This document shows positions 2,314 to 62,674 of a stretch of 64,000 bases of DNA, in pieces; positions within the stretch are counted from its first letter, which is position 1; each line of letters opens with the position of its first letter. The stretch spans positions 462,342 to 526,341 of the forward strand of contig JADFNM010000001.1 in NCBI GenBank assembly GCA_022563395.1, read 5' to 3'. The notes beneath the pieces are model-generated. The model made no database searches, had not been told where the DNA came from, and was given only the letters and a program-made list of their open reading frames with translations. This DNA is from Patescibacteria group bacterium (lineage in GTDB: Bacteria > Patescibacteriota > Minisyncoccia > Minisyncoccales > UBA10102). The translations under genes and the position numbers were made by a program.

Positions 2314-3867
2314 ATGAAAACAGAAGACAAGCAAACAGCGCTGGTATATTGCCGAGTCTCCAGCGAGGAGCAGGTCCATGGATATTCCTTAGATGCTCAA
2401 GAAAAATCTTGTAAAAGATTTGCAGAAACCAACAAACTCAAGGTACTCAAGGTTTATAGAGACGAAGGAAAAAGTGCCACCAATCTTGATAGACCTGCTC
2501 TTCAAGATCTTCTTTCTAGATGCAAAGAAAGCAAAGGGATTGAAGCAGTGATAGTCCAAGAAACAGATCGCTTGGCAAGAAAAACCCAAGACCACCTTGC
2601 TATCAAGGCAATCCTTAAAAAAGCAGGGGTGCGTCTCATCTCTGTTGCCCAACCAATGTTAGATGAAAGTCCTGAAGGCAACATGATAGACACCATTCTT
2701 GCCTCTGTAAATCAATTTCAATCAGACCTCAATGGGAGAAAAACGAAGAAAGGATTACAAGAAAAGTTTGACTCCGGTTGGTGGCCCGGACTTGCTCCTC
2801 TCGGATATCTCAACAAGTCTGTTGGTGAAAAAAATATCATAGTTAAAGATCCTACAAGGTGGGAACTTGTTAAAGAGGCAATGGCAATGTATTTGACTGG
2901 TAGCTATTCAGCAATACAAATTTCAGATACTTTATACACAAAAGGGCTTACAGGCAGATCTGGAAGAAACATCACCAATGGCATGATGATTAGCATCCTA
3001 AAAAATCCTTTCTACTGTGGAATAATGTGTAGAGACAACCAAGAAAAAACTGGTAGACATGAGGCAATGATTTCAATTGATGAACATCAGCGAATCCTTT
3101 CAATTGCACAAGCTCATGGTCAGCATGCTTCCCGCAGAAGAAAGCATGACTTTCTCCTACGAGGATTTGCACTATGTGCCATTTGTGGCCAACGATATAC
3201 TGCAGAAAAACACCGAAACGGAAAGAATGTAGACTATTATCATTGCTCAGCTAGTATCACAAAACATAGCAACAAAGGACAAAATGTAGAAGTGGAAGAA
3301 CTTGAGAAACAAGTAGAGGAAAGGTTCCAAAGCATTCAGTTCAGCAAAGACTTTATTGACCTTGTTGTTCAAAAGGTTACAAAATTCTACCGAGAGAAGA
3401 GAGCAATAAAGGAAACTAAGAAAAGGGGATTGCTGAATAAAAAGAATGGCATTGAAAAGAAAAGAGATACAGCAGAGGAAAAGCTTATTGCTGGAACTCT
3501 TTCAGATGAAGACTTCGTAAGAATGAGGGACCGATTTAAACAGGAAATTGATGTAATTCAAAATCAAATAGATGAAATAGAAAACTGGCATGAGGTAGAT
3601 ACCGACACCATACGGGAAGTTCTCATGCTCGCAAGAAACATTTATGAAGCCTACAAGAAAGCTCCCAATGAAGTAAAGAGGCTTTATCTTGGATTCTTCT
3701 GGGATAAGTTCCTGGTAAAAAACCAAAAAATAGTAAAGGCAGAACCCACAAAACTAGTGCAGACTCTCAAGAATCAAAGGAAAATTATATTAAACCTTAA
3801 CTGGGGTGGGCGAGGGGATTCGAACCCCCGATCTTCGCTGCCACAGAGCGACGCTTTAAGCCGCTAA
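2314..3867 (+). CDS. Large serine recombinase
   Basis: The N-terminus ALVYCRVSSEEQ..YSLDAQ..RDEGKSA matches the catalytic Ser motif region of resolvase/invertase domains. 517 aa with a Cys cluster and a C-terminal coiled coil. The 3' end overlaps tRNA-His antisense. Confidence 0.85.
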   Translation: MKTEDKQTALVYCRVSSEEQVHGYSLDAQEKSCKRFAETNKLKVLKVYRDEGKSATNLDRPALQDLLSRCKESKGIEAVIVQETDRLARKTQDHLAIKAILKKAGVRLISVAQPMLDESPEGNMIDTILASVNQFQSDLNGRKTKKGLQEKFDSGWWPGLAPLGYLNKSVGEKNIIVKDPTRWELVKEAMAMYLTGSYSAIQISDTLYTKGLTGRSGRNITNGMMISILKNPFYCGIMCRDNQEKTGRHEAMISIDEHQRILSIAQAHGQHASRRRKHDFLLRGFALCAICGQRYTAEKHRNGKNVDYYHCSASITKHSNKGQNVEVEELEKQVEERFQSIQFSKDFIDLVVQKVTKFYREKRAIKETKKRGLLNKKNGIEKKRDTAEEKLIAGTLSDEDFVRMRDRFKQEIDVIQNQIDEIENWHEVDTDTIREVLMLARNIYEAYKKAPNEVKRLYLGFFWDKFLVKNQKIVKAEPTKLVQTLKNQRKIILNLNWGGRGDSNPRSSLPQSDALSR

Positions 3868-3879
3868 GCTACGCCCACC
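3802..3879 (-). tRNA. tRNA-His (anticodon GTG), G-1 and CCA encoded
   Basis: Manual cloverleaf: acceptor GTGGGCG/CGCCCAC, anticodon loop CTGTGGC, T-loop GGGGGTTCGAATCCCCT, extra 5' G, discriminator C. Confidence 0.9.
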
Positions 3880-3893
3880 ATAATCCCTCCATG

Positions 3894-3965
3894 TGCCCCC
3901 AGTAGGAATCGAACCTACATTCCCAGCTTAGAAGGCTAGTGCTCTATCCGTTGAGCTATGGGGGC
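3894..3965 (-). tRNA. tRNA-Arg (anticodon TCT)
   Basis: Manual cloverleaf: acceptor GCCCCCA/TGGGGGC, anticodon stem CTAGC/GCTGG, loop CTTCTAA, T-arm GTAGGTTCGATTCCTAC. Confidence 0.9.
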
Positions 3966-4081
3966 TTAAAACCAAACTGCTTTGGTTTTAAGGGGCATTT
4001 TCTCTGCGAGCGATCTCGCCGCAGAGGCGAGCGCGAGGCGAGAAAATGCACCGGGTCTATAATCTACCTATTCCAACTGCT
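3951..4081. repeat. Left copy of a ~130-bp inverted repeat (partner 26819-26948)
   Basis: 62 nt identical (3951-4012 vs reverse complement of 26887-26948), then a ~27-nt variable hairpin tip, then 42 nt with 1 mismatch (4040-4081 vs 26819-26860). Contains CCGGGTCTATAATCT. Confidence 0.85.
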
Positions 4082-14160: not shown

Positions 14161-14170
14161 TTGTGTAGTA

Positions 14171-14251
14171 TACCCCGTTAGAAGTTCCCTTCGCAAGCAA
14201 TGTTGCCCCTTTAAGGCGGTACAACCTGGATGCTTAACTTCTAACGGGGTA
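14171..14251. repeat. 16-bp perfect inverted repeat TACCCCGTTAGAAGTT / AACTTCTAACGGGGTA with a 49-nt spacer, over the HK promoter
   Basis: Arms at 14171-14186 and 14236-14251. Same arm core as the elements at 46549-46622 and 60791-60868. Confidence 0.8.
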
Positions 14252-14300
14252 TATCACGGATTGAAAAAGAAGAGCAAAAATGGTATAAGAAAATACGCTG

Positions 14301-15236: not shown

Positions 15237-15551
15237 AATTTTTTACTCAAAAAATCTAAAGGTAGAAAGCAACTTATTTATTATTTCATCCTTCAGGGGA
15301 TCGCTTTTGGTGATTATATAAAAAGTCTGATTGTTTTCTGATATAAAAAATAATTTCAGTAGAAGAAACTTTTTCGTGTACTCTCCAGTCGTACCAGTTG
15401 TAACTGACTTTATCATCTATTTCACCGAGGGTAAAACTTCCCAATGCCGAGTTCCAAGTCTAAAATCTAGACCTGTTACATTATACAATGTCAAGAGCTA
15501 ACTAGAAAGCCGCCTTTCACGGGCGGCTTTCTGTTTCTAAGGCGCATATAT

Positions 15552-15587
15552 CCTAAATGAAATTAAAGCATCCTTAATTTCATTAAG
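15552..15587. repeat. Hairpin-repeat family copy (paired half-sites)
   Basis: CCTAAATGAAATTAAAG ... CCTTAATTTCATTAAG. Near identical to 21934-21970. Confidence 0.8.
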
Positions 15588-15590
15588 AAA

Positions 15591-17084
15591 CTAGCGCGCA
15601 TACTCTACAAATCTATTCTCCCGCACAAGGGTTACCTTAATTTCCCCTGGGTAGCGAAGCTCCTCCTCAATTCTTCCCGCAATGTCTTTTGTGAGTTTCT
15701 CTGCCTCAACGTCAGACACTTCTTTTGGTTTTACAAATACCCTGATCTCTCTTCCCGCCTGAATGGCATAGGACTTTTCAACACCCTCAAAAGAATTGGT
15801 AACGTTCTCCAATTCCGCAATCCTTTTCAGGTAGTTTTCCAAACTGTCTTTTCTTGCTCCGGGGCGGGCTGCTGAAATGGCGTCTGCTGCCTGTACCAAA
15901 ACCGCTTCAATGGTCTCATACGGATACTGCTCATGGTGAGACTTCATGGCATCAATCACTTCCTTTTCTGCTCCAAACTTCTCCAGCACGCGCATGCCAA
16001 TGTCAATGTGGGAACCTTCTACCTGGTGATCCAAGGCCTTTCCAATGTCATGAAACAGTCCTGCTTTCTTTGCAATAGCAATATTCATTCCAATCTCTGC
16101 TGCCAAAGCTCCTGCCAGATGAGCCACCTCTATGGAGTGCAAGAGAACGTTCTGGCCGTAAGAGGTTCTGAACTTGAGTCTTCCCAGCAGCTGTATAAGC
16201 TTTGGGTCGCTTCCCACAATTCCAACGTCAAAGACCGCAGCTTCTCCTGCTTCTTTAATCTGCTGCTCAATCTCCTGTTCTACCTTTTCCACTTCTTCTT
16301 CAACGCGCGTTGGATGAATCCTGCCATCTTTCATCAGGCGTTCTAAGGCAACCTTTGCAATGTGGCGGCGCAAGGGGTCAAATCCAGAGATGACCACGGC
16401 TTCTGGGGTTTCGTCAACAATGATCTCAACTCCGGCTGCCCGTTCCAAGGCACGAATATTCCTTCCTTCCTTCCCAATGATTTTTCCTTTCATGTCTTCG
16501 GAAGGCAAGGGAACCGTAGTGCTAGAAATCTCTTGCACCTGAGAAACCGCAGTCTTTTGAATAGCATACGCAAGAATCTCTTTTGCTCTGTTTTCAAAGC
16601 GTTCCTGGCCCTCGGCTTCAAGCTTCCGGATTCTGCCCAAGATATCTTTCTCGTAGCTTTCCTCAACACCTTTAAACAACTGTTCTTTTGCTTCTTCACG
16701 GGAGAGCTTTGCTACCTGCTCGAGCTTTTGCAAAGTCTCGTTCTTGCTTTCGGCTAACTTCTGTTCTTCCTTTTTGAGTTTTTCTACTTTGGCAAAAAAC
16801 TCCTGCTCCTTTTCTTCATACAAAGAAAGCTTGTCGCCTAAGGCGACCTCGCGCTTTAAGAGTAATTGTTCTGTTCCAAGCAGAGCTTTTCTGCGCTCGT
16901 CTTCTTGGCTTTTAGCTTTTGAAAGAAGTGCTTCTGCTTCTTTCTCTGCTTGAGCTACTTTCTTTTGCAGCCGCTGCTCTACGGTTCCGGCTTGGCGCTT
17001 TGCAAGGGATTGTCTCAACAAGTAGCCGAGAAAAATTCCCAGTGCCAAAGCCCCAAAGCCTGCCAAAAGGATTTGGGTTGTCAT
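15591..17084 (-). CDS. rny: Ribonuclease Y
   Basis: N-terminal TM, long coiled coil, KH domain (GKIIGKEGRNIRALE) and HD domain (LLHSIEVAH..HDIGKA). Confidence 0.9.
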   Translation of the reverse strand: MTTQILLAGFGALALGIFLGYLLRQSLAKRQAGTVEQRLQKKVAQAEKEAEALLSKAKSQEDERRKALLGTEQLLLKREVALGDKLSLYEEKEQEFFAKVEKLKKEEQKLAESKNETLQKLEQVAKLSREEAKEQLFKGVEESYEKDILGRIRKLEAEGQERFENRAKEILAYAIQKTAVSQVQEISSTTVPLPSEDMKGKIIGKEGRNIRALERAAGVEIIVDETPEAVVISGFDPLRRHIAKVALERLMKDGRIHPTRVEEEVEKVEQEIEQQIKEAGEAAVFDVGIVGSDPKLIQLLGRLKFRTSYGQNVLLHSIEVAHLAGALAAEIGMNIAIAKKAGLFHDIGKALDHQVEGSHIDIGMRVLEKFGAEKEVIDAMKSHHEQYPYETIEAVLVQAADAISAARPGARKDSLENYLKRIAELENVTNSFEGVEKSYAIQAGREIRVFVKPKEVSDVEAEKLTKDIAGRIEEELRYPGEIKVTLVRENRFVEYAR

Positions 17085-21875: not shown

Positions 21876-21933
21876 AATAAGACAAGAAACCCGCCTATTT
21901 GGCGCTTCTTTGTTTTGAGATAAACCGATATCT

Positions 21934-22073
21934 CCTAAATGAAATTAAAGCATTCTTAACTTCATTAGGGAATCACTAATTTCAATGAATATTGCTTAAA
22001 TCTCGTTTAGGCATGAATGATTTTTCCGATTATCTCTTAAATGAAATTAAGGATTCCTTAATTTCATTTAAGA
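21934..22073. repeat. Cluster of three hairpin-family copies
   Basis: 21934-21970 is a paired half-site copy, 21995-22011 is CTTAAATCTCGTTTAGG, and 22035-22073 is a perfect 19-bp-arm palindrome TCTTAAATGAAATTAAGGA-T-TCCTTAATTTCATTTAAGA. Confidence 0.85.
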
Positions 22074-22090
22074 ACTATTGAATTCTCACT

Positions 22091-26099: not shown

Positions 26100-26169
26100 T
26101 CAATCGAAAGCTTCCTTAATTTCATTAAGGCCTGCCTGCGCAGACAGGAGATAGACGAGTAAATGTACT

Positions 26170-26242: not shown

Positions 26243-26283
26243 CAATCCTTAATTTCATTAAGAAAATATGGCAGAATAGAACA

Positions 26284-26818: not shown

Positions 26819-26948
26819 AGCAGTTGGAATGGGTAGATTATAGACCCGGTGCATTTTCTCGGTGAGCCGAGCCTACTGGCAAACAACGCTCGCAGAGAAA
26901 ATGCCCCTTAAAACCAAAGCAGTTTGGTTTTAAGCCCCCATAGCTCAA
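26819..26948. repeat. Right copy of the ~130-bp inverted repeat (partner 3951-4081)
   Basis: See 3951-4081. Extends 15 nt into tRNA-Lys, whose 5' end equals that of tRNA-Arg(TCT). Confidence 0.85.
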
Positions 26949-33615: not shown

Positions 33616-36249
33616 ATGCGATTTATTGTAATTGGTTTGGTATTGAGCGTTCTTGTTTTTGTTCCTCAATTTGCTGTTGCAAACACAGCTCCGGTGGCAA
33701 ATGCAAATGGGCCCTATGAAGAGACGATAGGAAAACCTATTATATTTGATGGCTCAGCTTCCTCTGACGCAGACGGGGATTTCTTGACGTCGTATAGCTG
33801 GGACTTTGGGGATGAAGCTACAGGAACTGGCAGATTTTCTTTTCATGTATACGCTGCCCCCGGAATCTATACAGTAACTCTTGTAGTACATGACGGCACA
33901 GAAAACTCGGCCCCTGCAACAACAGAAGCAGTAATAGGGTTGGCTCCGCCAAGCAACCCGGTCTTGCCTAAAGAGGATGCGGGCTCGGTGGCGTTCCCCT
34001 TAATTCTTGAATGGGAAGAGGTAGAAAATGCCAAGTCGTATTTCTATAACATTTTCCCCATGGAAGAGGCCTTTTCGGTCTCAGATACAAAAAGCGGACC
34101 CCTGCCAAACGAGGTTTTGGAGTTCCTCTCCCCAAAAATCTATGAGGAGTACAAAAGGCAGTGCAAGCAAGAAAAAGGAGGGGCATGCTCAGATGAAGAC
34201 ATCCAGCGGGTTATTGTAAGGGAGCAAACCTACCCTTGGAGGGTAAAGGCGTGCACCGTTCCAAATCCTTCCGCCCCAGACGACGCCTCTTGCGGGCCCT
34301 ACAGCGATCCACCTTGGAGTTTTGTATATATCCCCCAACCCCCAGAAAACTTAGAAGAACCGAGCCCAGGTTCTTCGGGCGTTACCCTGCCCGTAAAGCT
34401 GGGGTGGACAGGAGTTGAGAATGTAGGTTCCTATGTTATTGATGTGCGGCTTGACATTGGCTGCAGCGTTATAGACAACATTGTAGGGTTCTTTACTGGA
34501 GGAGATTGCGACCCTCTGAACTTCTTTATAGAATCGGTCCTTGACTGGTTTGGGTTTGGAGAAAACTATGACCCATCCTGCCCTTGGAATTTGTGGAATA
34601 AGAACACGCAAGAATGCGTGCCCCTGCCCATCCTCCCTCGACTCAACAATGAAGACCCTCCAGTAGAAGAGTTGACCCCTCAATACCAAGATGCGGAACA
34701 AAAAATCTTGAAGATAAAAATTCCGGGGGTAGGTGATGTAGGAGATACGGTAGAAGGCCAATGCGTGTTTCCCAAAAATGCATCCTATAAAATCACCATC
34801 GCAAGTTGTCTGGATAAACAGGCACAAATCTGTGGGGAGTGGAGCGATGAATGGAAGTTTTCAACCGGAGCCAACAGAGAAGACGGTTCTTCATACGAAT
34901 TGCCGACTCCCACCCATATTGAACCAGAGTACGAACTGGGCAAACCCTTGCCTGTTGTAGGCAAAAACGCCTTGCTCAAATGGGAGGCGCAGAATTGTGT
35001 GCATTACGTGCGCCTCTTCGTTTCTCCTGTTGGGGGCAGTCCCATCATTAAAGAAATCTTGCCAAACTTTGAAAGCGCAGACCTTTCCCGAGAACAGTTT
35101 AAAAAGCTTTGGGACGAACCTTCCGACTTAGACAAAGAGTATGTATGGAATCTAGAGCCTTGCTGGCGAGTAGTGGATGATATATTTTGTGAAGGAGTGT
35201 TTAGCAACGAGTGGTATTTTAAAACCATTGGAGAACCACCTCTCCTTGAAACTCCAGAGAATGGCGAGTTTATGAAAGTTCCAAGTCAACTTTCTTGGAA
35301 AGGCATTGGCGGAGTAGAATCCTACAAAATAGAGATTGCTTCTGATGAAGAATTTGAAAACATTGTAAAGGAAGAAAGTGTGATACTGGGGAACACCTTT
35401 GTTGTTCTTTTTGAAGATGGTTTTCGACCAGACAACCAGTATTGGTGGCATGTGGCATCCTGCGCAGATACAGAGGGGGAAGTATGTGGAAACAACTGGA
35501 GCGAAGAAAGAAGCTTTCGTACTCATCCCTTACTTCCTCCTACCAATCCAAACCCGGGGGACGAAGGAGAAATGTTAATCCCAGGAAGCATCTCGTGGCA
35601 GCCAGATCCCGGAGCTTCCTATTATCAATACCAAATCTCGTATGCCTTACTCGCTCCAGACGAAACGCTTGAGGGGTGCGCAGAAAAAGAAGGGACGCAA
35701 ATTATTCCAAGACCAGGGGATACTCCTCCTATCACAAACCAAACTTCCTTTTATTTGAGTGAGCGCTGTACCGGAGAATACAATTGGAAAGTTCAATCTT
35801 GTGCGGATAAAGATTGCGCTATAAACAGTGACGATACCGAGGATTGGACAGCAACCCCGCTCTGGAGCTTTACTGCACAAGAACTCCCCGTGGAAGAACG
35901 CTTTGGTTTGGTCCCTTGCGGAAGAAACTCCAACAACCCCAAAACTCCGTACAATGAAAAAGAAGCATGTGGGGTAAAACACGTGGGCTTTCTTCTGCAA
36001 AACATCTTGGACTTTGTGCTATGGAAACTGTCTCTCATTATTCTTGCCGTCTTGGCGGTGTTTGTGGCAGCATCAACTTACTTCTCTTTTGGAAGGCCTG
36101 ATGTCATAACGCGTATTCGCTCTGTGTTTCGCTCTTACTTCTATGGTGTTCTCATTCTTCTCTTTGCCTGGCTCATTGTGAATATCATCATGGCGGTGCT
36201 TGGCTTTAACGTTAACTTCTTTGGCAATTGGTATGAAATACCATTTTAA
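33616..36249 (+). CDS. Giant secreted PKD/repeat protein ending in a VirB2-like pilin module
   Basis: Signal peptide; PKD signature (SWDFGDE..YTVTLVVHDG); at least 5 Cys/Trp repeats ending W.F(K/R/S)T. C-terminus is GLVPCG plus two TM helices. TGgTACAAT -10 lies 6 nt before the ATG. Confidence 0.65.
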   Translation: MRFIVIGLVLSVLVFVPQFAVANTAPVANANGPYEETIGKPIIFDGSASSDADGDFLTSYSWDFGDEATGTGRFSFHVYAAPGIYTVTLVVHDGTENSAPATTEAVIGLAPPSNPVLPKEDAGSVAFPLILEWEEVENAKSYFYNIFPMEEAFSVSDTKSGPLPNEVLEFLSPKIYEEYKRQCKQEKGGACSDEDIQRVIVREQTYPWRVKACTVPNPSAPDDASCGPYSDPPWSFVYIPQPPENLEEPSPGSSGVTLPVKLGWTGVENVGSYVIDVRLDIGCSVIDNIVGFFTGGDCDPLNFFIESVLDWFGFGENYDPSCPWNLWNKNTQECVPLPILPRLNNEDPPVEELTPQYQDAEQKILKIKIPGVGDVGDTVEGQCVFPKNASYKITIASCLDKQAQICGEWSDEWKFSTGANREDGSSYELPTPTHIEPEYELGKPLPVVGKNALLKWEAQNCVHYVRLFVSPVGGSPIIKEILPNFESADLSREQFKKLWDEPSDLDKEYVWNLEPCWRVVDDIFCEGVFSNEWYFKTIGEPPLLETPENGEFMKVPSQLSWKGIGGVESYKIEIASDEEFENIVKEESVILGNTFVVLFEDGFRPDNQYWWHVASCADTEGEVCGNNWSEERSFRTHPLLPPTNPNPGDEGEMLIPGSISWQPDPGASYYQYQISYALLAPDETLEGCAEKEGTQIIPRPGDTPPITNQTSFYLSERCTGEYNWKVQSCADKDCAINSDDTEDWTATPLWSFTAQELPVEERFGLVPCGRNSNNPKTPYNEKEACGVKHVGFLLQNILDFVLWKLSLIILAVLAVFVAASTYFSFGRPDVITRIRSVFRSYFYGVLILLFAWLIVNIIMAVLGFNVNFFGNWYEIPF

Positions 36250-36255
36250 ACACAT

Positions 36256-36272
36256 CCTTAATTTCATTTAGG
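36256..36272. repeat. Hairpin-family copy CCTTAATTTCATTTAGG
   Basis: Lies 51-67 nt upstream of the ATG at 36323. Confidence 0.8.
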
Positions 36273-36322
36273 AACTATGGCTTTCCATTTTCACCCTCTC
36301 TGGGATATAATATAATAACCAT

Positions 36323-41141: not shown

Positions 41142-41143
41142 AT

Positions 41144-41185
41144 ATGAACCACTCGCTTTGCTCAGAACCATATATTTCTCACTAA
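41144..41185 (+). promoter_or_regulatory. 13-codon mini-ORF cassette (MNHSLCSEPYISH) between the PrgI-like and VirB4-N-like genes
   Basis: About 80% nt identity to 62624-62665 (MNHSRSLKPYISY). Stop lies 10 nt before the ATG at 41196. Confidence 0.5.
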
Positions 41186-41195
41186 CGTTCAAAAT

Positions 41196-43615: not shown

Positions 43616-43636
43616 TGCCTTAACTAAATTATGGAT

Positions 43637-43655
43637 TCCTTAATCTCGTTAAGGA
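43637..43655. repeat. Hairpin-family copy TCCTTAATCTCGTTAAGGA
   Basis: Lies 20-38 nt upstream of the ATG at 43675. Confidence 0.8.
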
Positions 43656-43674
43656 AACGCCCAAGGTATATACA

Positions 43675-46195: not shown

Positions 46196-46548
46196 AAAAG
46201 AAAGTATACTACAAAAGGAGCTCGGTGTCTATTTGGGGCTCGACATAAGGTTTTCCGCGACCACCTCGTCCCGCCCCCAGCGAGGCGGGCGGGTTGCCCT
46301 CTCGGTCTGCCACCCTTCGGGACCATGCTGGCAGACCTGCGAGAGCTCGCAAAAACCTTAATGTCTTGCCCATCTCATTCTTCACATATTTTCCACAGGT
46401 TTTGCACACTAGGACACATTTTAACCTTAACTTTACCCCTCCCCTTGTCATTGTGTATAATGATGGCGTACTATACAGAATTACTGGTGCCATCATTTGT
46501 GCCGGCGGGCACATAATGATGACGTATCATGATGTTGCTCCCGTGAAT

Positions 46549-46622
46549 CCCGTTAGAAGTCCAGCCCACAAACGTAGAAACCATCCATGAACAACAATGC
46601 TAACAATTTTAACTTCTAACGG
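46549..46622 (+). promoter_or_regulatory. dnaA leader element: 11-bp stem arms flanking a 10-codon mini-ORF (46587-46619, MNNNANNFNF)
   Basis: CCGTTAGAAGT ... ACTTCTAACGG. About 80% identical over ~78 nt to 60790-60868. The mini-ORF stop lies 4 nt before the dnaA ATG. Confidence 0.6.
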
Positions 46623-46623
46623 C

Positions 46624-47982
46624 ATGAATAAAGATGAACTCTGGCAGGCTGCCTTAGCCCAGCTCCAATTCAAAATCTCCCCCGCCAACTTTGCAACCTG
46701 GCTTAAAAACACCTTCATCCTCTCAAAAAAAGAAGGGACTCTTTTTGTTTCTGTCCCCAACAACTTCTCAAAAGAATGGCTGGAACACAAGTACAACAAA
46801 ATTATCTTTCATGCGATCCGAAGCCTGGACAACGAGATTCGGGAAATCCGCTACACCGTAGAGAGGACGCAGCCAAAACCCAAGGAAACTCCTCCTCAAC
46901 CAACGAGCCAAGTCCAAGAAGACCAGATGGAGTTTCCGGAGTTTAAGGTAGACCGCTCCACCAATCTCAACCCCCGCTATGCCTTTGACAACTTTATTGT
47001 AGGGGCCTTTAACGAACTGGCGCATGCGGCCTCCTTGGCTGTTGTAAAAACCCCCGGCAGCGTATACAACCCCCTCTTTGTCTACGGCGGCGTAGGACTT
47101 GGAAAAACTCACTTGCTTCAAGCGATTGGCAACCAGATTATAAAAGAATTTCCTCAAAAGAAGTTAAAATATATTTCCTCGGAGCGTTTCACGTCCGGGG
47201 TAGTGTCTGCCATCCGAAACAAGAACATGGATGCCTTGCGCTTAATGTACCGAGAGCTTGATGTCCTGATTGTTGACGACGTACAGTTTTTGGCAGGAAA
47301 GGATAAAACCCAAGAAGAACTCTTCCACACCTTCAACACCCTTTACGAAGCAGGAAAGCAGATTATCTTTTCCTCAGACCGTCCCCCAAAGGCCATTCCT
47401 GCTTTAGAAGAGCGTCTGAGGTCTCGGTTTGAGGGCGGCATGGTAGCTGACATCTCCTCGCCAGACTACGAAACCAGAATAGCAATCTTGCGAGCCAAGA
47501 TGCAAGAAAAAGAGCTTGCTTTGGACGATGAGGTCTTGGACTATATCGCCTCCCACATTCAAAGGAATATACGGGAGCTGGAAGGGGCCCTGAACCGACT
47601 TGCTGCTTTCTCGCGTCTCAACTCGGGCAAGACTCCGGCCTTTGGGGAAGCAAAAACCCTGCTGCGTACGGTCATTCAAAACCCAAACAGGGTGGCTAAC
47701 CCAAAGAAAATCCTTCAGGTGGTAGCTGAGTTCTACGACTTAAGAGAAAAAGATATACTGGCCCTGTCTCGAAAAAAAGAGGTGGTGAGACCCCGCCAGA
47801 TTGCAATGTACCTTTTAAGAGAGGAACTTAAGGGTTCCTACCCTTTTATTGGGAAGAGGTTTGGTGGTAAAGATCATACCACCGCCATCTACGCTTGTGC
47901 AAAAATTGCAAAAGAACTTCAGGTCTCTGAGGTTTTGGTTGATGAAATCGCGTTAATACGCCAGCGCATATACAGTGGATAG
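46624..47982 (+). CDS. dnaA: Chromosomal replication initiator DnaA
   Basis: Walker A GGVGLGKTHL, box VII and a C-terminal DNA-binding helix (DHTTAIYA). Start at the ATG at 46624 (MNKDELWQAALAQL). Confidence 0.95.
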   Translation: MNKDELWQAALAQLQFKISPANFATWLKNTFILSKKEGTLFVSVPNNFSKEWLEHKYNKIIFHAIRSLDNEIREIRYTVERTQPKPKETPPQPTSQVQEDQMEFPEFKVDRSTNLNPRYAFDNFIVGAFNELAHAASLAVVKTPGSVYNPLFVYGGVGLGKTHLLQAIGNQIIKEFPQKKLKYISSERFTSGVVSAIRNKNMDALRLMYRELDVLIVDDVQFLAGKDKTQEELFHTFNTLYEAGKQIIFSSDRPPKAIPALEERLRSRFEGGMVADISSPDYETRIAILRAKMQEKELALDDEVLDYIASHIQRNIRELEGALNRLAAFSRLNSGKTPAFGEAKTLLRTVIQNPNRVANPKKILQVVAEFYDLREKDILALSRKKEVVRPRQIAMYLLREELKGSYPFIGKRFGGKDHTTAIYACAKIAKELQVSEVLVDEIALIRQRIYSG

Positions 47983-58572: not shown

Positions 58573-60789
58573 ATGGCACAAAAGAAGCGTCTGCTTATCA
58601 TTGACGCAAACTCCTTAATTCACAGGGCTTTTCATGCCCTGCCTCCTTTAAGCACAAGCAAAGGGGAGATGGTAAATGCGGTGTATGGCTTTTTGCTGGC
58701 TTTTTTTAAGGCCATCAATGAGTTTCATCCAGACTATATTGCAGCTGCCTTTGACCACCCTGCTGTAACGAAGCGAGAAAAGAAATTCAAGGAATACAAG
58801 GCAAAGCGGGAGAAAGCGCCAGATGAGCTGTATGATCAGATTCCCAGGGTAAAAGAGGTGTTGGAAGCATTTCACGTCCCTGTGTTTGAGAAAGCAGGAT
58901 TTGAGGCAGACGATATCATTGGAACCGTGGCAAAACTCGCCCCCCAAAGGCAAGCAGTTCCTCCATTGGAAACCATAATTCTTTCCGGAGACATGGATTT
59001 GCTGCAGTTGGTTGATAAAAACACCAAGGTGTACGCCATGCGAAAAGGGATTCAGGATTCTGTGCTCTTTGACATTAAAAAGGTGCAAGAACGCTTTGGT
59101 GTGGGCCCCGAGTTGGTTGCAGACTGGAAGGGGCTACGCGGAGATCCTTCAGATAACATTCCGGGTGTAAGGGGAGTAGGAGAAAAAACCGCAACCCAAC
59201 TGCTTTCTTCTTTGGGCTCTTTGGAATCTTTGTACTCTGCCTTGAAAGCAAAAGAAGAGATTCCCGGTGTTTCTGCAAAGCTTAGAGAAACTCTTTTGGG
59301 AGAGAAAGACATTGCTTTTTTAAGCAAGGAGTTGGCCATCATTGAACGGGACGTTCCCCTGGATTTTAGCTTGCCGGATCTTGCCTGGCAGGGGTTTGAC
59401 AAAAAAGAAGCAGAAAAGGTTCTGTTACGTTTTGAATTCCGCACGTTAGCCTTGCGCATACCAGACGTTGGAGAAAAAATAGAGAAACAAAAAGAAGCTT
59501 CAGAAGAGGACCGCGTTGAAGAGAAGCTCAAGCGCTTGTATGAGGAAGGCGTCTTTTCAGAAAAGGTGTATGAAATGGAGCAGGAACTTTCTCCGGTACT
59601 CCGAATGATGGAGAAAACCGGAATTCAAATTGACAAGAAGTTCTTTGAAAAGCTTTCAAAAGAGTTAGATAAGAATTTGCAGAAGCTGGAAGCCAGCATC
59701 ACAAAAAAAGCAAGAACTGCGTTTAACATCAACTCCCCAAAGCAGCTGTCTGAAGTATTGTTTGAAAAACTCGGGCTTTCTCCGAGAGGATTGCACAAAA
59801 CTCCAGGCGGGGTTGTTTCCACTGCATCCTCTGAGTTAGAGAAACTCAGAGACAGCCATCCTGTGGTGGCAGAAATCCTCAGCTACCGGGAGTTAGCAAA
59901 GCTCCAGAATACGTACGTTGTTCCTTTGCCTCAGCTAGCTGACAAGCAGTCGAGAGTGCACACGCATTTTGACCAGCTGGGAGCTGCAACCGGGAGATTG
60001 TCTTCTGCCAACCCAAATCTCCAGAACGTTCCTTTGCAGGGAGAATGGGGGCAGAAGATACGTCGCGGCTTTGTTGCAAAGAAGGGATTTGAGCTTGTTT
60101 CCCTGGACTATTCTCAGGTAGAGCTTCGCATTGCATCTCACATTGCAGGAGAGGAGAAGATGCAGAACGCCTTTCTGGAGGGGAGAGACATTCACCGGGA
60201 AACCGCCGCAGCGGTGTTTGGAGTAAAAGACAAGGATGTTACTCATCAAATGAGATTTAAGGCAAAGGCCTTAAACTTTGGGGTTCTCTACGGCATGGGG
60301 GCCCGCGGCTTTTCCCAATCAGCCGGCATCCCATTTGAGGAGGCGCAGGATTTCATTGAAAACTACTTTGTGCAGTTTCCCCACATTGCAAAGTACATGC
60401 AAGATACCATTGAGTCAACACGAGAGCTCGGGTATGCAGAAACCCTGTTTGGCAGGAAGCGCTATCTTCCCGACATTCATTCCAACACTCCGCATATTCG
60501 TGCTGCTGCAGAACGGGTTGCCATCAACCACCCGATTCAAGGAAGCCAAGCCGACGTCATTAAGATGGCCATGGTGAAGATTGTAAAAGAGCTCTCTTTG
60601 CAACAAGAAGAATGCCGCATGCTCCTGCAGATTCATGATGAATTGTTGTTTGAGATACGCAGTGATATAGTAAGAAAGCGAGCAAAAGAGATTAAAGCGC
60701 TCATGGAAAAAATAGTTTCCCTCAAGGTCCCGTTGGTAGTAAAGGCAAGTTCGGGGCAAAGCTGGGGAGCCCAAAAAAGCATTCCATGA
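58573..60789 (+). CDS. polA: DNA polymerase I (5' nuclease plus polymerase; short or absent 3'-5' exo region)
   Basis: 5' nuclease motifs (LLIIDANSLIHRAF), polymerase motif A (LVSLDYSQVELRI), motif B (RFKAKALNFGVLYG) and motif C (QIHDEL). TGgTAGAAT lies 6 nt before the ATG. Confidence 0.95.
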   Translation: MAQKKRLLIIDANSLIHRAFHALPPLSTSKGEMVNAVYGFLLAFFKAINEFHPDYIAAAFDHPAVTKREKKFKEYKAKREKAPDELYDQIPRVKEVLEAFHVPVFEKAGFEADDIIGTVAKLAPQRQAVPPLETIILSGDMDLLQLVDKNTKVYAMRKGIQDSVLFDIKKVQERFGVGPELVADWKGLRGDPSDNIPGVRGVGEKTATQLLSSLGSLESLYSALKAKEEIPGVSAKLRETLLGEKDIAFLSKELAIIERDVPLDFSLPDLAWQGFDKKEAEKVLLRFEFRTLALRIPDVGEKIEKQKEASEEDRVEEKLKRLYEEGVFSEKVYEMEQELSPVLRMMEKTGIQIDKKFFEKLSKELDKNLQKLEASITKKARTAFNINSPKQLSEVLFEKLGLSPRGLHKTPGGVVSTASSELEKLRDSHPVVAEILSYRELAKLQNTYVVPLPQLADKQSRVHTHFDQLGAATGRLSSANPNLQNVPLQGEWGQKIRRGFVAKKGFELVSLDYSQVELRIASHIAGEEKMQNAFLEGRDIHRETAAAVFGVKDKDVTHQMRFKAKALNFGVLYGMGARGFSQSAGIPFEEAQDFIENYFVQFPHIAKYMQDTIESTRELGYAETLFGRKRYLPDIHSNTPHIRAAAERVAINHPIQGSQADVIKMAMVKIVKELSLQQEECRMLLQIHDELLFEIRSDIVRKRAKEIKALMEKIVSLKVPLVVKASSGQSWGAQKSIP

Positions 60790-60790
60790 C

Positions 60791-60868
60791 CCCTGTTAGA
60801 AGTTCAGCCACAAAAACACAGAGACCATCTATGAACAACAATACTAACAGTTTTAACTTCTAACAGGG
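60791..60868 (+). promoter_or_regulatory. Leader element: 14-bp perfect stem arms flanking a 10-codon mini-ORF (60831-60863, MNNNTNSFNF)
   Basis: CCCTGTTAGAAGTT ... AACTTCTAACAGGG. Homologous to the dnaA leader. The mini-ORF stop lies 4 nt before the GTG at 60868. Confidence 0.6.
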
Positions 60869-61473
60869 TGAAATTCTCCATTCAACTTGCAGTCATCCTC
60901 ATCATCGGCCTGTTGTTCTTGGCCTCGTTAATTTCCATCTACTTTGCCCTGGGCGAAGAACAGACCATACCCCTGATCTTAGTGGCATCAGCCAACATCG
61001 TGGCCGTCATTTTTCTTACTTTTTTGATTACCAGGGGGATCATGCAGCCCTTAAAGCACATTCGGGAAATTATGAAACGGGTAGGAGAGGGAGATCTCAC
61101 CAAGCGTATTAACTTTAGGGCCACAAAGGAGATGGAGCAGGTTGGAGGGGCCTTCAACGACATGATCTCCAGGCTCTCCAACGCGAGGCAAGAAATTGAA
61201 GATGCTAACAAGATTTTAGAACAGCGGGTAAAGGAGCGCACCCGGCAGCTCCGAGAGCTCGCCCTTTCCTTAGAAGGAAAAGTGCAAGAGCGCACCAAAG
61301 AACTTGAAGAGAAGGTAAAGCAGCTTGAGCGCTTCCAAAAGCTTGCCGTGGGGAGAGAGCTGCGCATGGTGGAGCTTAAAGACGAAATTCGCGCGCTTGA
61401 AGAGCAGCGCTTAAAACACAAACCTTCAAATAATGGTTCAGCAACAAGAAAAAGAGAACCCAAAAACACTTAA
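60868..61473 (+). CDS. TM plus HAMP plus coiled-coil protein (sensor-kinase N-terminal module, GTG start)
   Basis: Two TM helices, HAMP (PLKHIREIMKRVGEGDLTKRI) and a long heptad region. Overlaps the next ORF by 41 nt in another frame. Confidence 0.65.
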   Translation: MKFSIQLAVILIIGLLFLASLISIYFALGEEQTIPLILVASANIVAVIFLTFLITRGIMQPLKHIREIMKRVGEGDLTKRINFRATKEMEQVGGAFNDMISRLSNARQEIEDANKILEQRVKERTRQLRELALSLEGKVQERTKELEEKVKQLERFQKLAVGRELRMVELKDEIRALEEQRLKHKPSNNGSATRKREPKNT

Positions 61474-62620: not shown

Positions 62621-62623
62621 CAT

Positions 62624-62665
62624 ATGAACCATTCGCGTAGCTTAAAACCATATATTTCTTACTAG
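62624..62665 (+). promoter_or_regulatory. 13-codon mini-ORF cassette (MNHSRSLKPYISY) between the HK and RR genes
   Basis: Homologous to 41144-41185. Stop lies 9 nt before the ATG at 62675. Confidence 0.5.
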
Positions 62666-62674
62666 CGCGCAAAT

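Follow-up and report, generated by a model that had tools for sequence, protein, structure and literature searches.

A palindromic element resembling a miniature inverted-repeat transposable element at the dnaA start codon of a Patescibacteria bacterium

A palindromic element at the start of dnaA

The DNA studied here (the window, 64,000 nucleotides of contig JADFNM010000001.1, assembly GCA_022563395.1, from a Patescibacteria group bacterium) carries a 77-nt palindromic element, hereafter copy 1 (46548-46624, no strand assigned), at the start of the replication initiator gene dnaA (46624-47982, plus strand, 452 aa). The neighbourhood is that of a typical origin region, with jag, yidC and rnpA on the minus strand followed by dnaA and dnaN, and a 44-codon minus-strand open reading frame (ORF) near dnaA occupies what we take to be the position of rpmH. 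DnaA homologues group the window with Candidatus Wildermuthbacteria-like Patescibacteria of the Candidate Phyla Radiation (CPR). The public gene call places the dnaA start at 46624, and about 40 relatives start at the equivalent position with the conserved N-terminus M(N/T)K(D/E)ELW. A longest-frame ORF listing chooses another codon, ATG 46597, overlooked by the first-pass annotation, which lies inside copy 1 in frame with dnaA and would make DnaA 9 residues longer (MLTILTSNG-MNKDELW); this frame is not kept in a relative with an occupied dnaA site (L125, see below), and 46624 is therefore favoured as the start.

Copy 1 probably lies inside the dnaA 5' leader, since a promoter-like site, TTTACC-18-TATAAT (46432-46461, plus strand, a consensus match only), is found upstream of it and the TATAAT block is conserved among relatives. 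A separate polymorphism was observed in the same promoter region: a segment of ~57 nt (46463-46520) is present in the window, L124 and L127 and missing from L122, L123 and L125. A repeat of ATAATGATGRCGTA delimits it, doubling the -10-like block (TATAAT at 46456-46461, CATAAT at about 46513). Independently of the palindromic element, a second indel or duplication appears to be polymorphic here.

The 5' arm of copy 1 reads T-CCC-GTTAGAAGT (46548-46560) and the 3' arm ACTTCTAAC-GGC-A (46612-46624). The 11-bp stem reported by the first-pass annotation around a mini-ORF is real: CCGTTAGAAGT (46550-46560), read as its reverse complement, matches ACTTCTAACGG (46612-46622) exactly, and the two enclose a loop of 51 nt. 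The predicted RNA fold (-13.4 kcal/mol, z = -2.8 against shuffles) is dominated by this outer stem, the interior being A/C-rich and unstructured. The element is flanked by two copies of TGAA, both given on the plus strand. The left one (46544-46547) forms, together with G46543, the hexamer GTGAAT, a remnant of the ancestral ATGAAT dnaA start, so that the former start survives as GTG 46543 to the left of copy 1. The TG of the right one (46625-46628) completes the present start codon: ATG 46624-46626 consists of the terminal A of copy 1 and the duplicated TG. The junction as a whole reads G-TGAA-[T CCC…GGC A]-TGAA-T.

The arm pair occurs three times within the window and in none of 100 shuffles. 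Copy 2 (60790-60868, 79 nt, no strand assigned; arms CCCCTGTTAGAAGTT / AACTTCTAACAGGG) is the element near 60790 that had been put at ~80% identity with copy 1 and that we find to be 84-87% identical. It sits in the ATGA overlap of polA and a HAMP-domain gene. Compensatory change in the stem, which had been suggested as a check, is present, as the arms of copy 2 carry a matched T/A insertion with respect to copy 1 (CCTGTTAG / CTAACAGG). Its flanks are a duplicated TGA (60787-60789 and 60869-60871), and a new GTG start (60868-60870) is composed of the final G of the element and the duplicated TG. Copy 3 (14173-14249, 77 nt, no strand assigned; arms CCCCGTTAGAAGTT / AACTTCTAACGGGG; TATA duplications at 14169-14172 and 14250-14253) had been missed earlier, as had the short direct repeats that bound all three copies. 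Its interior is unrelated to those of copies 1 and 2 and holds no comparable mini-ORF; it is not at a protein start but between the start of a minus-strand sensor-kinase gene (start codon 14158-14160) and tRNA genes (from 14301).

We consider it very probable that copy 1 is a non-autonomous, palindromic mobile element of the kind known as miniature transposable elements with inverted repeats (MITEs), inserted at the dnaA start with reconstruction of the start codon. This reading is built on a repeat family with inverted repeats and a target duplication, on empty and filled sites, on the rebuilt start, on a bias in insert length and on copies within ORFs. Insertion into A|TGAA|T would have left the former start on the left, now GTG 46543, and the terminal A of the element joined to the duplicated TG would have rebuilt ATG 46624 on the right, with dnaA intact behind an ~80-nt hairpin-forming leader. 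Mobilisation would have occurred in trans, by a transposase making 4-nt staggered cuts, and copy 1 would have no dedicated regulatory role.

Empty and filled sites among relatives

The dnaA loci of close relatives were retrieved and then aligned or read. The site is empty in five lineages (L122/L123, L124, L127, L253 and L254), where it reads …CC ATGAAT AAAGA… or carries ATGACC or ATGACA instead, and DnaA is 87-93% identical to that of the window. It is filled in L125/L126 (DnaA 90% identical), which read …TTCC ATGAAT [CCCGCTAGAAGTT…AACTTCTAAACGGG] ATGAAT AAAGAC…; the L125 insert belongs to the same subfamily as copy 1 and has the same orientation, with slightly decayed arms. In terms of a 4-bp duplication, the dnaA target is A|TGAA|T. 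L251 and L252 have an empty site for copy 2: their polA and HAMP-domain genes still overlap at an unbroken ATGA (…CC ATGA AATTC…), and the window holds 82 additional bases at this junction. Thus, at both dnaA and polA/HAMP, orthologous sites differ by the element plus one duplicate, as expected of a MITE. The dnaA insertion occurred either in an ancestor of the window lineage or independently of that in L125.

Distribution, ends and target-site duplication of the family

When one genome per species was scanned for the exact arms, at least 120 loci were returned, and a metagenome scan with a CC/GG-extended pattern also returned at least 120. The family statistics below rest on 193 non-identical copies among the matches listed (at least 193 exist). 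CC/GG flanks were required to exclude noise from heptamer tandem repeats, which accounted for about half of the first genome-collection matches. Inverted blocks of tandem heptamers (GTTAGAA/AGTTAGA-type) contain the arm 9-mer too, for example at L005, L020, L023, L058 and L101; such loci, which come from Bacteroidota, Cyanobacteria, Acidobacteriota and other groups, have no relation to the element and gave false matches. Among the matches listed, the CPR hosts are Saccharibacteria, Yanofsky-, Nomura-, Falkow-, Kaiser-, Buchanan-, Terry- and Doudnabacteria, and the other hosts are Planctomycetota (Pirellulales, Phycisphaerae), Nitrospirota, Ratteibacteria and a few proteobacterial metagenome-assembled genomes. 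A scan of viral contigs for the element gave 0 matches.

The common layout is flank-CCC(C)GTTAGAAGT-variable interior-ACTTCTAACGGG(G)-flank, with flanks that repeat each other. Most copies are 60-90 nt long, about 30-60 nt of which is variable interior, and 13-14 bp at either end form terminal inverted repeats, Y-CCCGTTAGAAGT … ACTTCTAACGGG-R. Positions -6 to -3 equal positions +3 to +6 in 80-84% of copies (29-64% expected), agreement outside this register being at chance level, while positions -2 and +2 are complementary in 95% (48% expected). The target-site duplication is therefore 4 bp long with the consensus TNNA, and it is perfect in 131 of 188 listed copies. The commonest duplications are TGAA/TTCA (36), TCAA/TTGA (25) and TAAA/TTTA (24), and TTAA also occurs. 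In a GC-rich host they are CTGC, CCAG and CTGG, so that the length of the duplication is fixed and its sequence preference loose. A 6-bp duplication (RTNNRY) was also considered; the per-position analysis resolves it into the 4-bp duplication plus Y/R bases borne by the element.

Variant arms change on both sides jointly (GAAGT/ACTTC, GAAAT/ATTTC, GAGGT/ACCTC). Unusual members include an arm-only hairpin with a 3-nt loop (CCCCGTTAGAGGT-TCA-ACCTCTAACGGGG, L183 4800-4830), an element nested in another with variant arms (L242 5093-5290) and, on a GC-rich contig, a cluster of four copies in 700 bp that have the CTGC/CCAG/CTGG duplications (L227 12905-13580). Apart from a parent element or transposase, of which none was found in the window or in 1.75 Mb of fetched loci, the family has the properties by which MITEs are recognised: inverted repeats, a duplication of fixed length, small size without a transposase ORF and multiple dispersed copies. 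At the gathering threshold, Rfam found only tRNAs in the whole window, and a permissive scan of 46300-46800 (E<=10) returned nothing relevant; literature searches on the arm strings and on MITEs of CPR or Planctomycetota yielded no description of the family. With no match in Rfam, NCBIfam or the searched literature, the element family appears to be undescribed.

An integron attC origin was ruled out by inspection of the sequence. Core sites of attC run RYYYAAC…GTTRRRY, but here GTT… belongs to the 5' arm and …AAC to the 3' arm, and each copy has its own target duplication.

Insertions at gene borders and within reading frames

How do the copies sit with respect to genes? In 54 listed copies (28%), an ORF of at least 70 codons opens exactly at +2, that is, at the R of the element followed by TG. 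Where RTG stands at +2, a long ORF begins there in 64% of cases; for RTG elsewhere in the same loci the figure is 23.6%. The left duplicate also keeps an ATG or GTG in 42 of the 54, ATGAAT being by far the commonest site. In 29 listed copies a gene stop lies in the left duplicate, and 36 are spanned in frame by long ORFs. Some copies lie between convergent or divergent genes. Related copies at L183 6852-6928 and 9242-9318 separate what their translations suggest are the ribosomal protein genes L14/L24 and S19/L22, and both sit on the start codon of the downstream gene. A hairpin bridging a Shine-Dalgarno sequence and the start codon was ruled out as an explanation, as Shine-Dalgarno-like motifs lie upstream of only 4 of the 54 start-codon insertions.

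The first-pass annotation had held that copies away from starts would favour a plain MITE over a regulator of dnaA. Such copies exist, namely copy 3 and the 36 listed members inside ORFs, and to that extent a plain MITE is favoured.

Counting element and duplication together, 115 of 193 inserts have a length divisible by 3, with 39 in each of the other two classes. At gene borders, where frame is irrelevant, the length classes are unbiased (23/24/24); copies inside ORFs are nearly all multiples of 3, as expected from a test that demands an open frame; and the unclassified copies are biased as well (57/15/14). We read the bias as selection for preservation of the frame rather than as an intrinsic length rule. 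Removal at the RNA level, by an intron-like process or translational bypass, was ruled out, as the multiple-of-3 bias is seen in coding contexts only and the ORFs remain uninterrupted.

Judging by the translations, the in-frame hosts are presumably SecA, DnaE, UvrC, HypD, leucyl aminopeptidase (PepA), a glycosyltransferase and a sulfatase. The RibD insert, of 24 residues, has no counterpart in the solved RibD structure PDB 9no2, against which it appears as a clean gap. As the arms are palindromic, both orientations encode an insert of the pattern x-PVRS-(14-20 aa)-TSNG-x. As with the palindromic elements of Rickettsia, insertion is thus in frame in conserved coding genes and leaves the ORF open.

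The mini-ORF and translation of dnaA

The interior and 3' arm of copy 1 contain a mini-ORF, MNNNANNFNF (46587-46619, plus strand), whose stop codon (TAA, 46617-46619) is the TAA contained in the arm sequence ACTTCTAAC. The spacer CGGC separates it from the dnaA ATG 46624, so the 4-nt distance and the coordinates given by the first-pass annotation are correct. That annotation did not include an upstream ORF of 15 codons (VNPVRSPAHKRRNHP and stop; 46543-46590, plus strand) that is opened by the ancestral start and runs from GTG 46543 to TGA 46588-46590, its stop overlapping the mini-ORF start (ATGA). GTG 46543 is in frame with dnaA (81 nt, 27 codons), yet closed by this TGA. In copy 2, where the mini-ORF precedes the HAMP-domain gene and not dnaA, the ancestral ATG reads via the frame of the mini-ORF and meets a TAA that lies 5 nt ahead of the rebuilt GTG 60868; in L125 the upstream ORF ends elsewhere, at a TAA after 11 codons, 13 nt before the mini-ORF ATG.

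The first-pass annotation had proposed that the Asn-rich mini-ORF is a leader peptide that senses charged tRNA-Asn, melts or preserves the stem and so sets the level of DnaA synthesis. Six of its 10 codons are Asn, its stop lies within the 3' arm 4 nt before the dnaA ATG, and it is intact in all three related copies. The likeness to leader-peptide attenuators and to coupling by upstream ORFs (uORFs) is real: a short ORF overlaps a stem and stops beside the main start, and stop and start codons overlap as ATGA. The peptide, known only from these related copies, reads MNNNANNFNF in copy 1, MNNNTNSFNF in copy 2 and MSNNANSFNF in L125, and the three substitutions are all nonsynonymous; a comparison of synonymous and nonsynonymous change, suggested earlier as a check, therefore shows a peptide that is not conserved. 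The element is a recent insertion, missing from five close dnaA lineages, and with it the peptide with its supposed regulatory codons is missing from five orthologous dnaA leaders. The same mini-ORF fronts an unrelated HAMP-domain gene, and copy 3 and about 190 other listed family members, whose interiors differ, do without it. No alternative terminator or antiterminator structure was found at copy 1, for which a single outer stem is predicted, and there is no terminator-like site between copy 1 and dnaA; mutually exclusive structures, as attenuators have, are thus lacking. Unlike such attenuators, the arrangement has no link to an amino-acid pathway and is borne by a mobile element absent from relatives. 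The Asn richness follows from the A/C-rich interior, and the mini-ORF is an accidental ORF in the interior of a local subfamily. A dedicated, Asn-tRNA-sensing regulator of dnaA is accordingly abandoned as a highly improbable explanation.

The other part of the earlier proposal, reinitiation coupling, fares better. An ORF that enters the consensus arm (ACTTCTAAC-GGG-R-TGAA) has three possible fates according to its frame: it runs on in frame, ends at the TAA, or ends at a TGA that shares bases with the rebuilt ATG; for a TGAA target, all three outcomes would deliver ribosomes from the former start to the new one. Reasoning from the reading frames, a termination-reinitiation relay from the former start to the rebuilt start is plausible. 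Ribosomes would initiate at the former start, melt the stem and terminate at the TGA/ATG overlap; termination at the arm TAA, 4 nt upstream of the new ATG, would then sustain translation of dnaA. Alternatively, initiation may occur directly at ATG 46624 or 46597. The relay geometry looks like a consequence of the site and manner of insertion and not like a purpose-built sensing device.

It is also conceivable that the insertion has been domesticated, being kept at dnaA since the uORF relay and the stem tune the level of the initiator. The insertion is retained in two diverged lineages, the window and L125 (90% DnaA identity), the mini-ORF of L125 is intact despite decaying arms, copies 1 and 2 both preserve the geometry of the relay, and the right half of the interior is the better conserved. 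Most relatives nevertheless thrive without the element, the upstream ORF of L125 ends elsewhere, and the sample is three copies. We regard domestication as unlikely.

Interior structure, mobility and points against the MITE reading

The interiors are far more structured than shuffles in about a third of members (z < -2 in 34%). In the largest subfamily (44 listed copies) the organisation is arm-A-[hairpin AGNCNCC…]-G-[hairpin CCG…CGG]-arm, with nearly all junction bases paired. Each position of the internal stems shows 3-5 types of Watson-Crick pair, 653 pairs being Watson-Crick and 27 G-U. Orientation relative to the host gene is unbiased (9 vs 5 inside ORFs, 4 vs 7 at starts). The scarcity of G-U pairs, the variety of Watson-Crick pairs and the lack of orientation bias indicate that constraint or templated correction acts on the DNA and make a strand-specific RNA function unlikely. 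Copies 1 and 2, by contrast with these structured members, form a local subfamily whose interior is A/C-rich and unstructured (z about +1, +0.97); no further members of this subfamily were found in the fetched loci, and a metagenome scan specific to the mini-ORF gave 0 matches.

These data bear on the idea that the element is a structured cis-regulatory or protein-binding RNA hairpin of 5' leaders, such as an RNase III/processing site or a translational operator. The stable stem, the 28% of listed copies that abut start codons and the compensatory arm variants listed above are what such a hairpin would produce. The equal use of both orientations relative to transcription, the copies inside ORFs and between convergent or divergent genes, near-identical loci that differ as empty and filled, the few G-U pairs and the lack of an Rfam match speak against it, and we hold it to be very unlikely.

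Several points weigh against the reading of copy 1 as a simple MITE. In a neighbour-joining tree of DnaA, which carries no support values, the filled alleles (the window and P0006) are not sisters and empty ones are nested between them, both outgroups also carrying the empty site; this pattern suggests precise loss, more than one insertion at this site or recombination. Between copies 1 and 2, the mini-ORF half of the interior agrees at 31 of 33 nt, compared with about 70% for the left half, and some constraint may act on the mini-ORF half. The T-shape of the internal hairpins, perfectly paired and variable in sequence in about a third of members, is unexplained by a simple deletion-derivative MITE. 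No pairs of inverted repeats 0.8-4 kb apart and enclosing an ORF were found in the 1.75 Mb of fetched loci.

The search of these loci for an autonomous copy or unpaired arms gave only degenerate, variant-arm, minimal or nested elements, and no DDE, Y1 or RAYT (transposase associated with repetitive extragenic palindromic, REP, sequences) gene was found in the window, where the only candidate is a large serine recombinase beside tRNA genes. The T-shaped hairpins may be the recognition structure of a different process, single-stranded-DNA mobility via an HUH/Y1 tyrosine transposase of the REP/RAYT or 'TIRYT' type. Many members fold as an outer stem around two perfect hairpins whose strictly Watson-Crick stems are hypervariable, and arm-only minimal hairpins occur. 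Moreover, REP-type palindromes are found inside ORFs, where they encode 20-30 aa, and embedded in longer palindromes, and CGTC-type repeats without a known transposase have been described (PMC3733652); hairpin 1 often contains GGCGTC. Against this stand a variable 4-bp duplication of a pre-existing target, seen directly in the empty and filled sites, the lack of a Y1 transposase in the window and the polymorphic insertions of copies 1 and 2, which have no internal hairpins. Insertions of the IS200/IS605 type make no target duplication. A REP/RAYT assignment also fails in that the CGTC motif is found only in hairpin 1 of one subfamily, and we consider an HUH/Y1 mechanism doubtful, if somewhat less so than domestication. 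The non-autonomous MITE-like element thus remains the preferred reading.

Other repeats in the window

Further repeats were observed in the window. A 52-nt repeat (83% identical; 41142-41193 and 62622-62673) exactly fills the gap between adjacent genes at both of its locations (PrgI-like/TraC-like and histidine kinase/response regulator); direct repeats of (A)TATG flank it, the right one supplying the downstream start codon, and it may represent a second small family of start-codon-duplicating inserts. A palindromic repeat family, …AAATGAAATTAAGG-N-CCTTAATTTCATTT…, lies mostly near gene ends (15547-15601, 21929-21983, 22031-22085, 26102-26132, 26246-26276, 36244-36285 and 43618-43656), and its members could be terminator-like hairpins or a further repeat element. 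A hairpin, CTTAAAACCAAA-NNNN-TTTGGTTTTAAG, abuts the 5' ends of tRNA genes at 3965-3992 and 26907-26934, with its loop inverted between the two, and a large serine recombinase gene (Resolvase/Recombinase/Zn-ribbon, 2314-3867) lies beside a tRNA pair at 3805-3965. The tRNA-adjoining hairpin and the recombinase may mark an integrated element.

Relation to known elements and significance

The family shares with known bacterial MITEs (Correia/NEMIS, RUP, Nezha, QMITE) a length of ~60-90 bp, the lack of coding capacity, inverted repeats with a target duplication, multiple dispersed copies and presence/absence polymorphism. It differs in that no parent insertion sequence with matching ends was found in the 1.75 Mb of loci and the window, in 12-nt arms that are identical across several phyla around unrelated interiors, in the two perfect internal hairpins of many members, and in the strong association with start and stop codons and the multiple-of-3 lengths. 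MITEs are able to alter how neighbouring genes are expressed and to form in-frame fusions with ORFs, and the Rickettsia palindromic elements (RPEs) are in-frame palindromic selfish DNA in conserved genes, replication and repair genes included (PMC10969869). RPEs and intragenic REP dimers add about 20-30 aa while the ORF is kept (PMC10969869, PMC3733652).

The present family behaves similarly, inserting in frame in functional genes and encoding its PVRS…TSNG segment. It has no sequence relationship to these elements, RPE-1 is larger (about 100-150 bp), and it is hosted by Patescibacteria, Planctomycetota and Nitrospirota, not by Rickettsiales. The 4-bp duplication and the empty sites also set it apart; to our knowledge, neither RPEs nor REPs have a clear or demonstrated target duplication. 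NCBIfam includes domain models for RPEs, and a scan of five encoded peptides against NCBIfam gave no match, so that membership of an RPE family is not indicated by sequence.

A resemblance to piggyBac/IS1380 elements lies in the combination of a 4-bp T..A duplication (TTAA in piggyBac, TNNA here, with TTAA among the sites) and ends initiated by CCC. Ends of the IS1380 family are of the form CC(t/c), with duplications of 4-5 bp. Both our element, TNNA|Y-CCCGTTAGAAGT, and piggyBac begin with CCC followed by a TAGAA motif, and seamless excision would account for the patchy distribution of filled and empty dnaA sites. The piggyBac end is given as TTAA|CCCTAGAAAGATA and also as TTAA|CCCTAGAAAG (PMC7351741). 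Unlike piggyBac, the family has an extra Y/R base between the duplication and CCC, its target specificity is loose (CTGC/CCAG-type sites), and no transposase gene was found in the window or the 1.75 Mb of loci. So short a resemblance may be due to chance; it is a lead rather than evidence of membership.

Tentatively, the family may be a cross-phylum, gene-tolerant DNA parasite that lands on starts, on stops and inside ORFs without killing the gene. The TNNA duplication and the terminal R/Y bases rebuild ATG and GTG starts; each arm supplies a stop in one frame (TAG in GTTAGAAGT, TAA in ACTTCTAAC); retained copies favour multiple-of-3 lengths, and their inserts would be read through in either orientation; and a bacterial piggyBac/IS1380-like transposase or an enzyme acting on T-shaped hairpins would move the element and perhaps excise it seamlessly. 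We know of no explanation of RPE mobility, nor, besides RPEs and some REPs, of more than a few bacterial in-frame elements in essential genes, and of none with clear insertion signatures.

The analysis removes a tempting amino-acid-sensing story at the replication initiator: a stem and a mini-ORF beside a start codon can arise mechanically from the inverted repeats of a transposon and its target duplication. For annotation, such inserts shift predicted starts (ATG 46597 vs 46624) and add spurious peptide segments to conserved proteins. The family offers defined ends, a defined duplication and natural empty and filled alleles, with copies in what appear to be SecA, DnaE, UvrC and ribosomal-protein operons of the streamlined genomes of CPR bacteria, and is thus a route to studying selfish DNA in compact genomes, the tolerance of 80-nt hairpins at starts and operon junctions, and the mobilising enzyme. 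If the view of a gene-tolerant parasite is true, the family would be a tractable counterpart of the Rickettsia RPEs, and dnaA would carry a natural uORF-relay leader.

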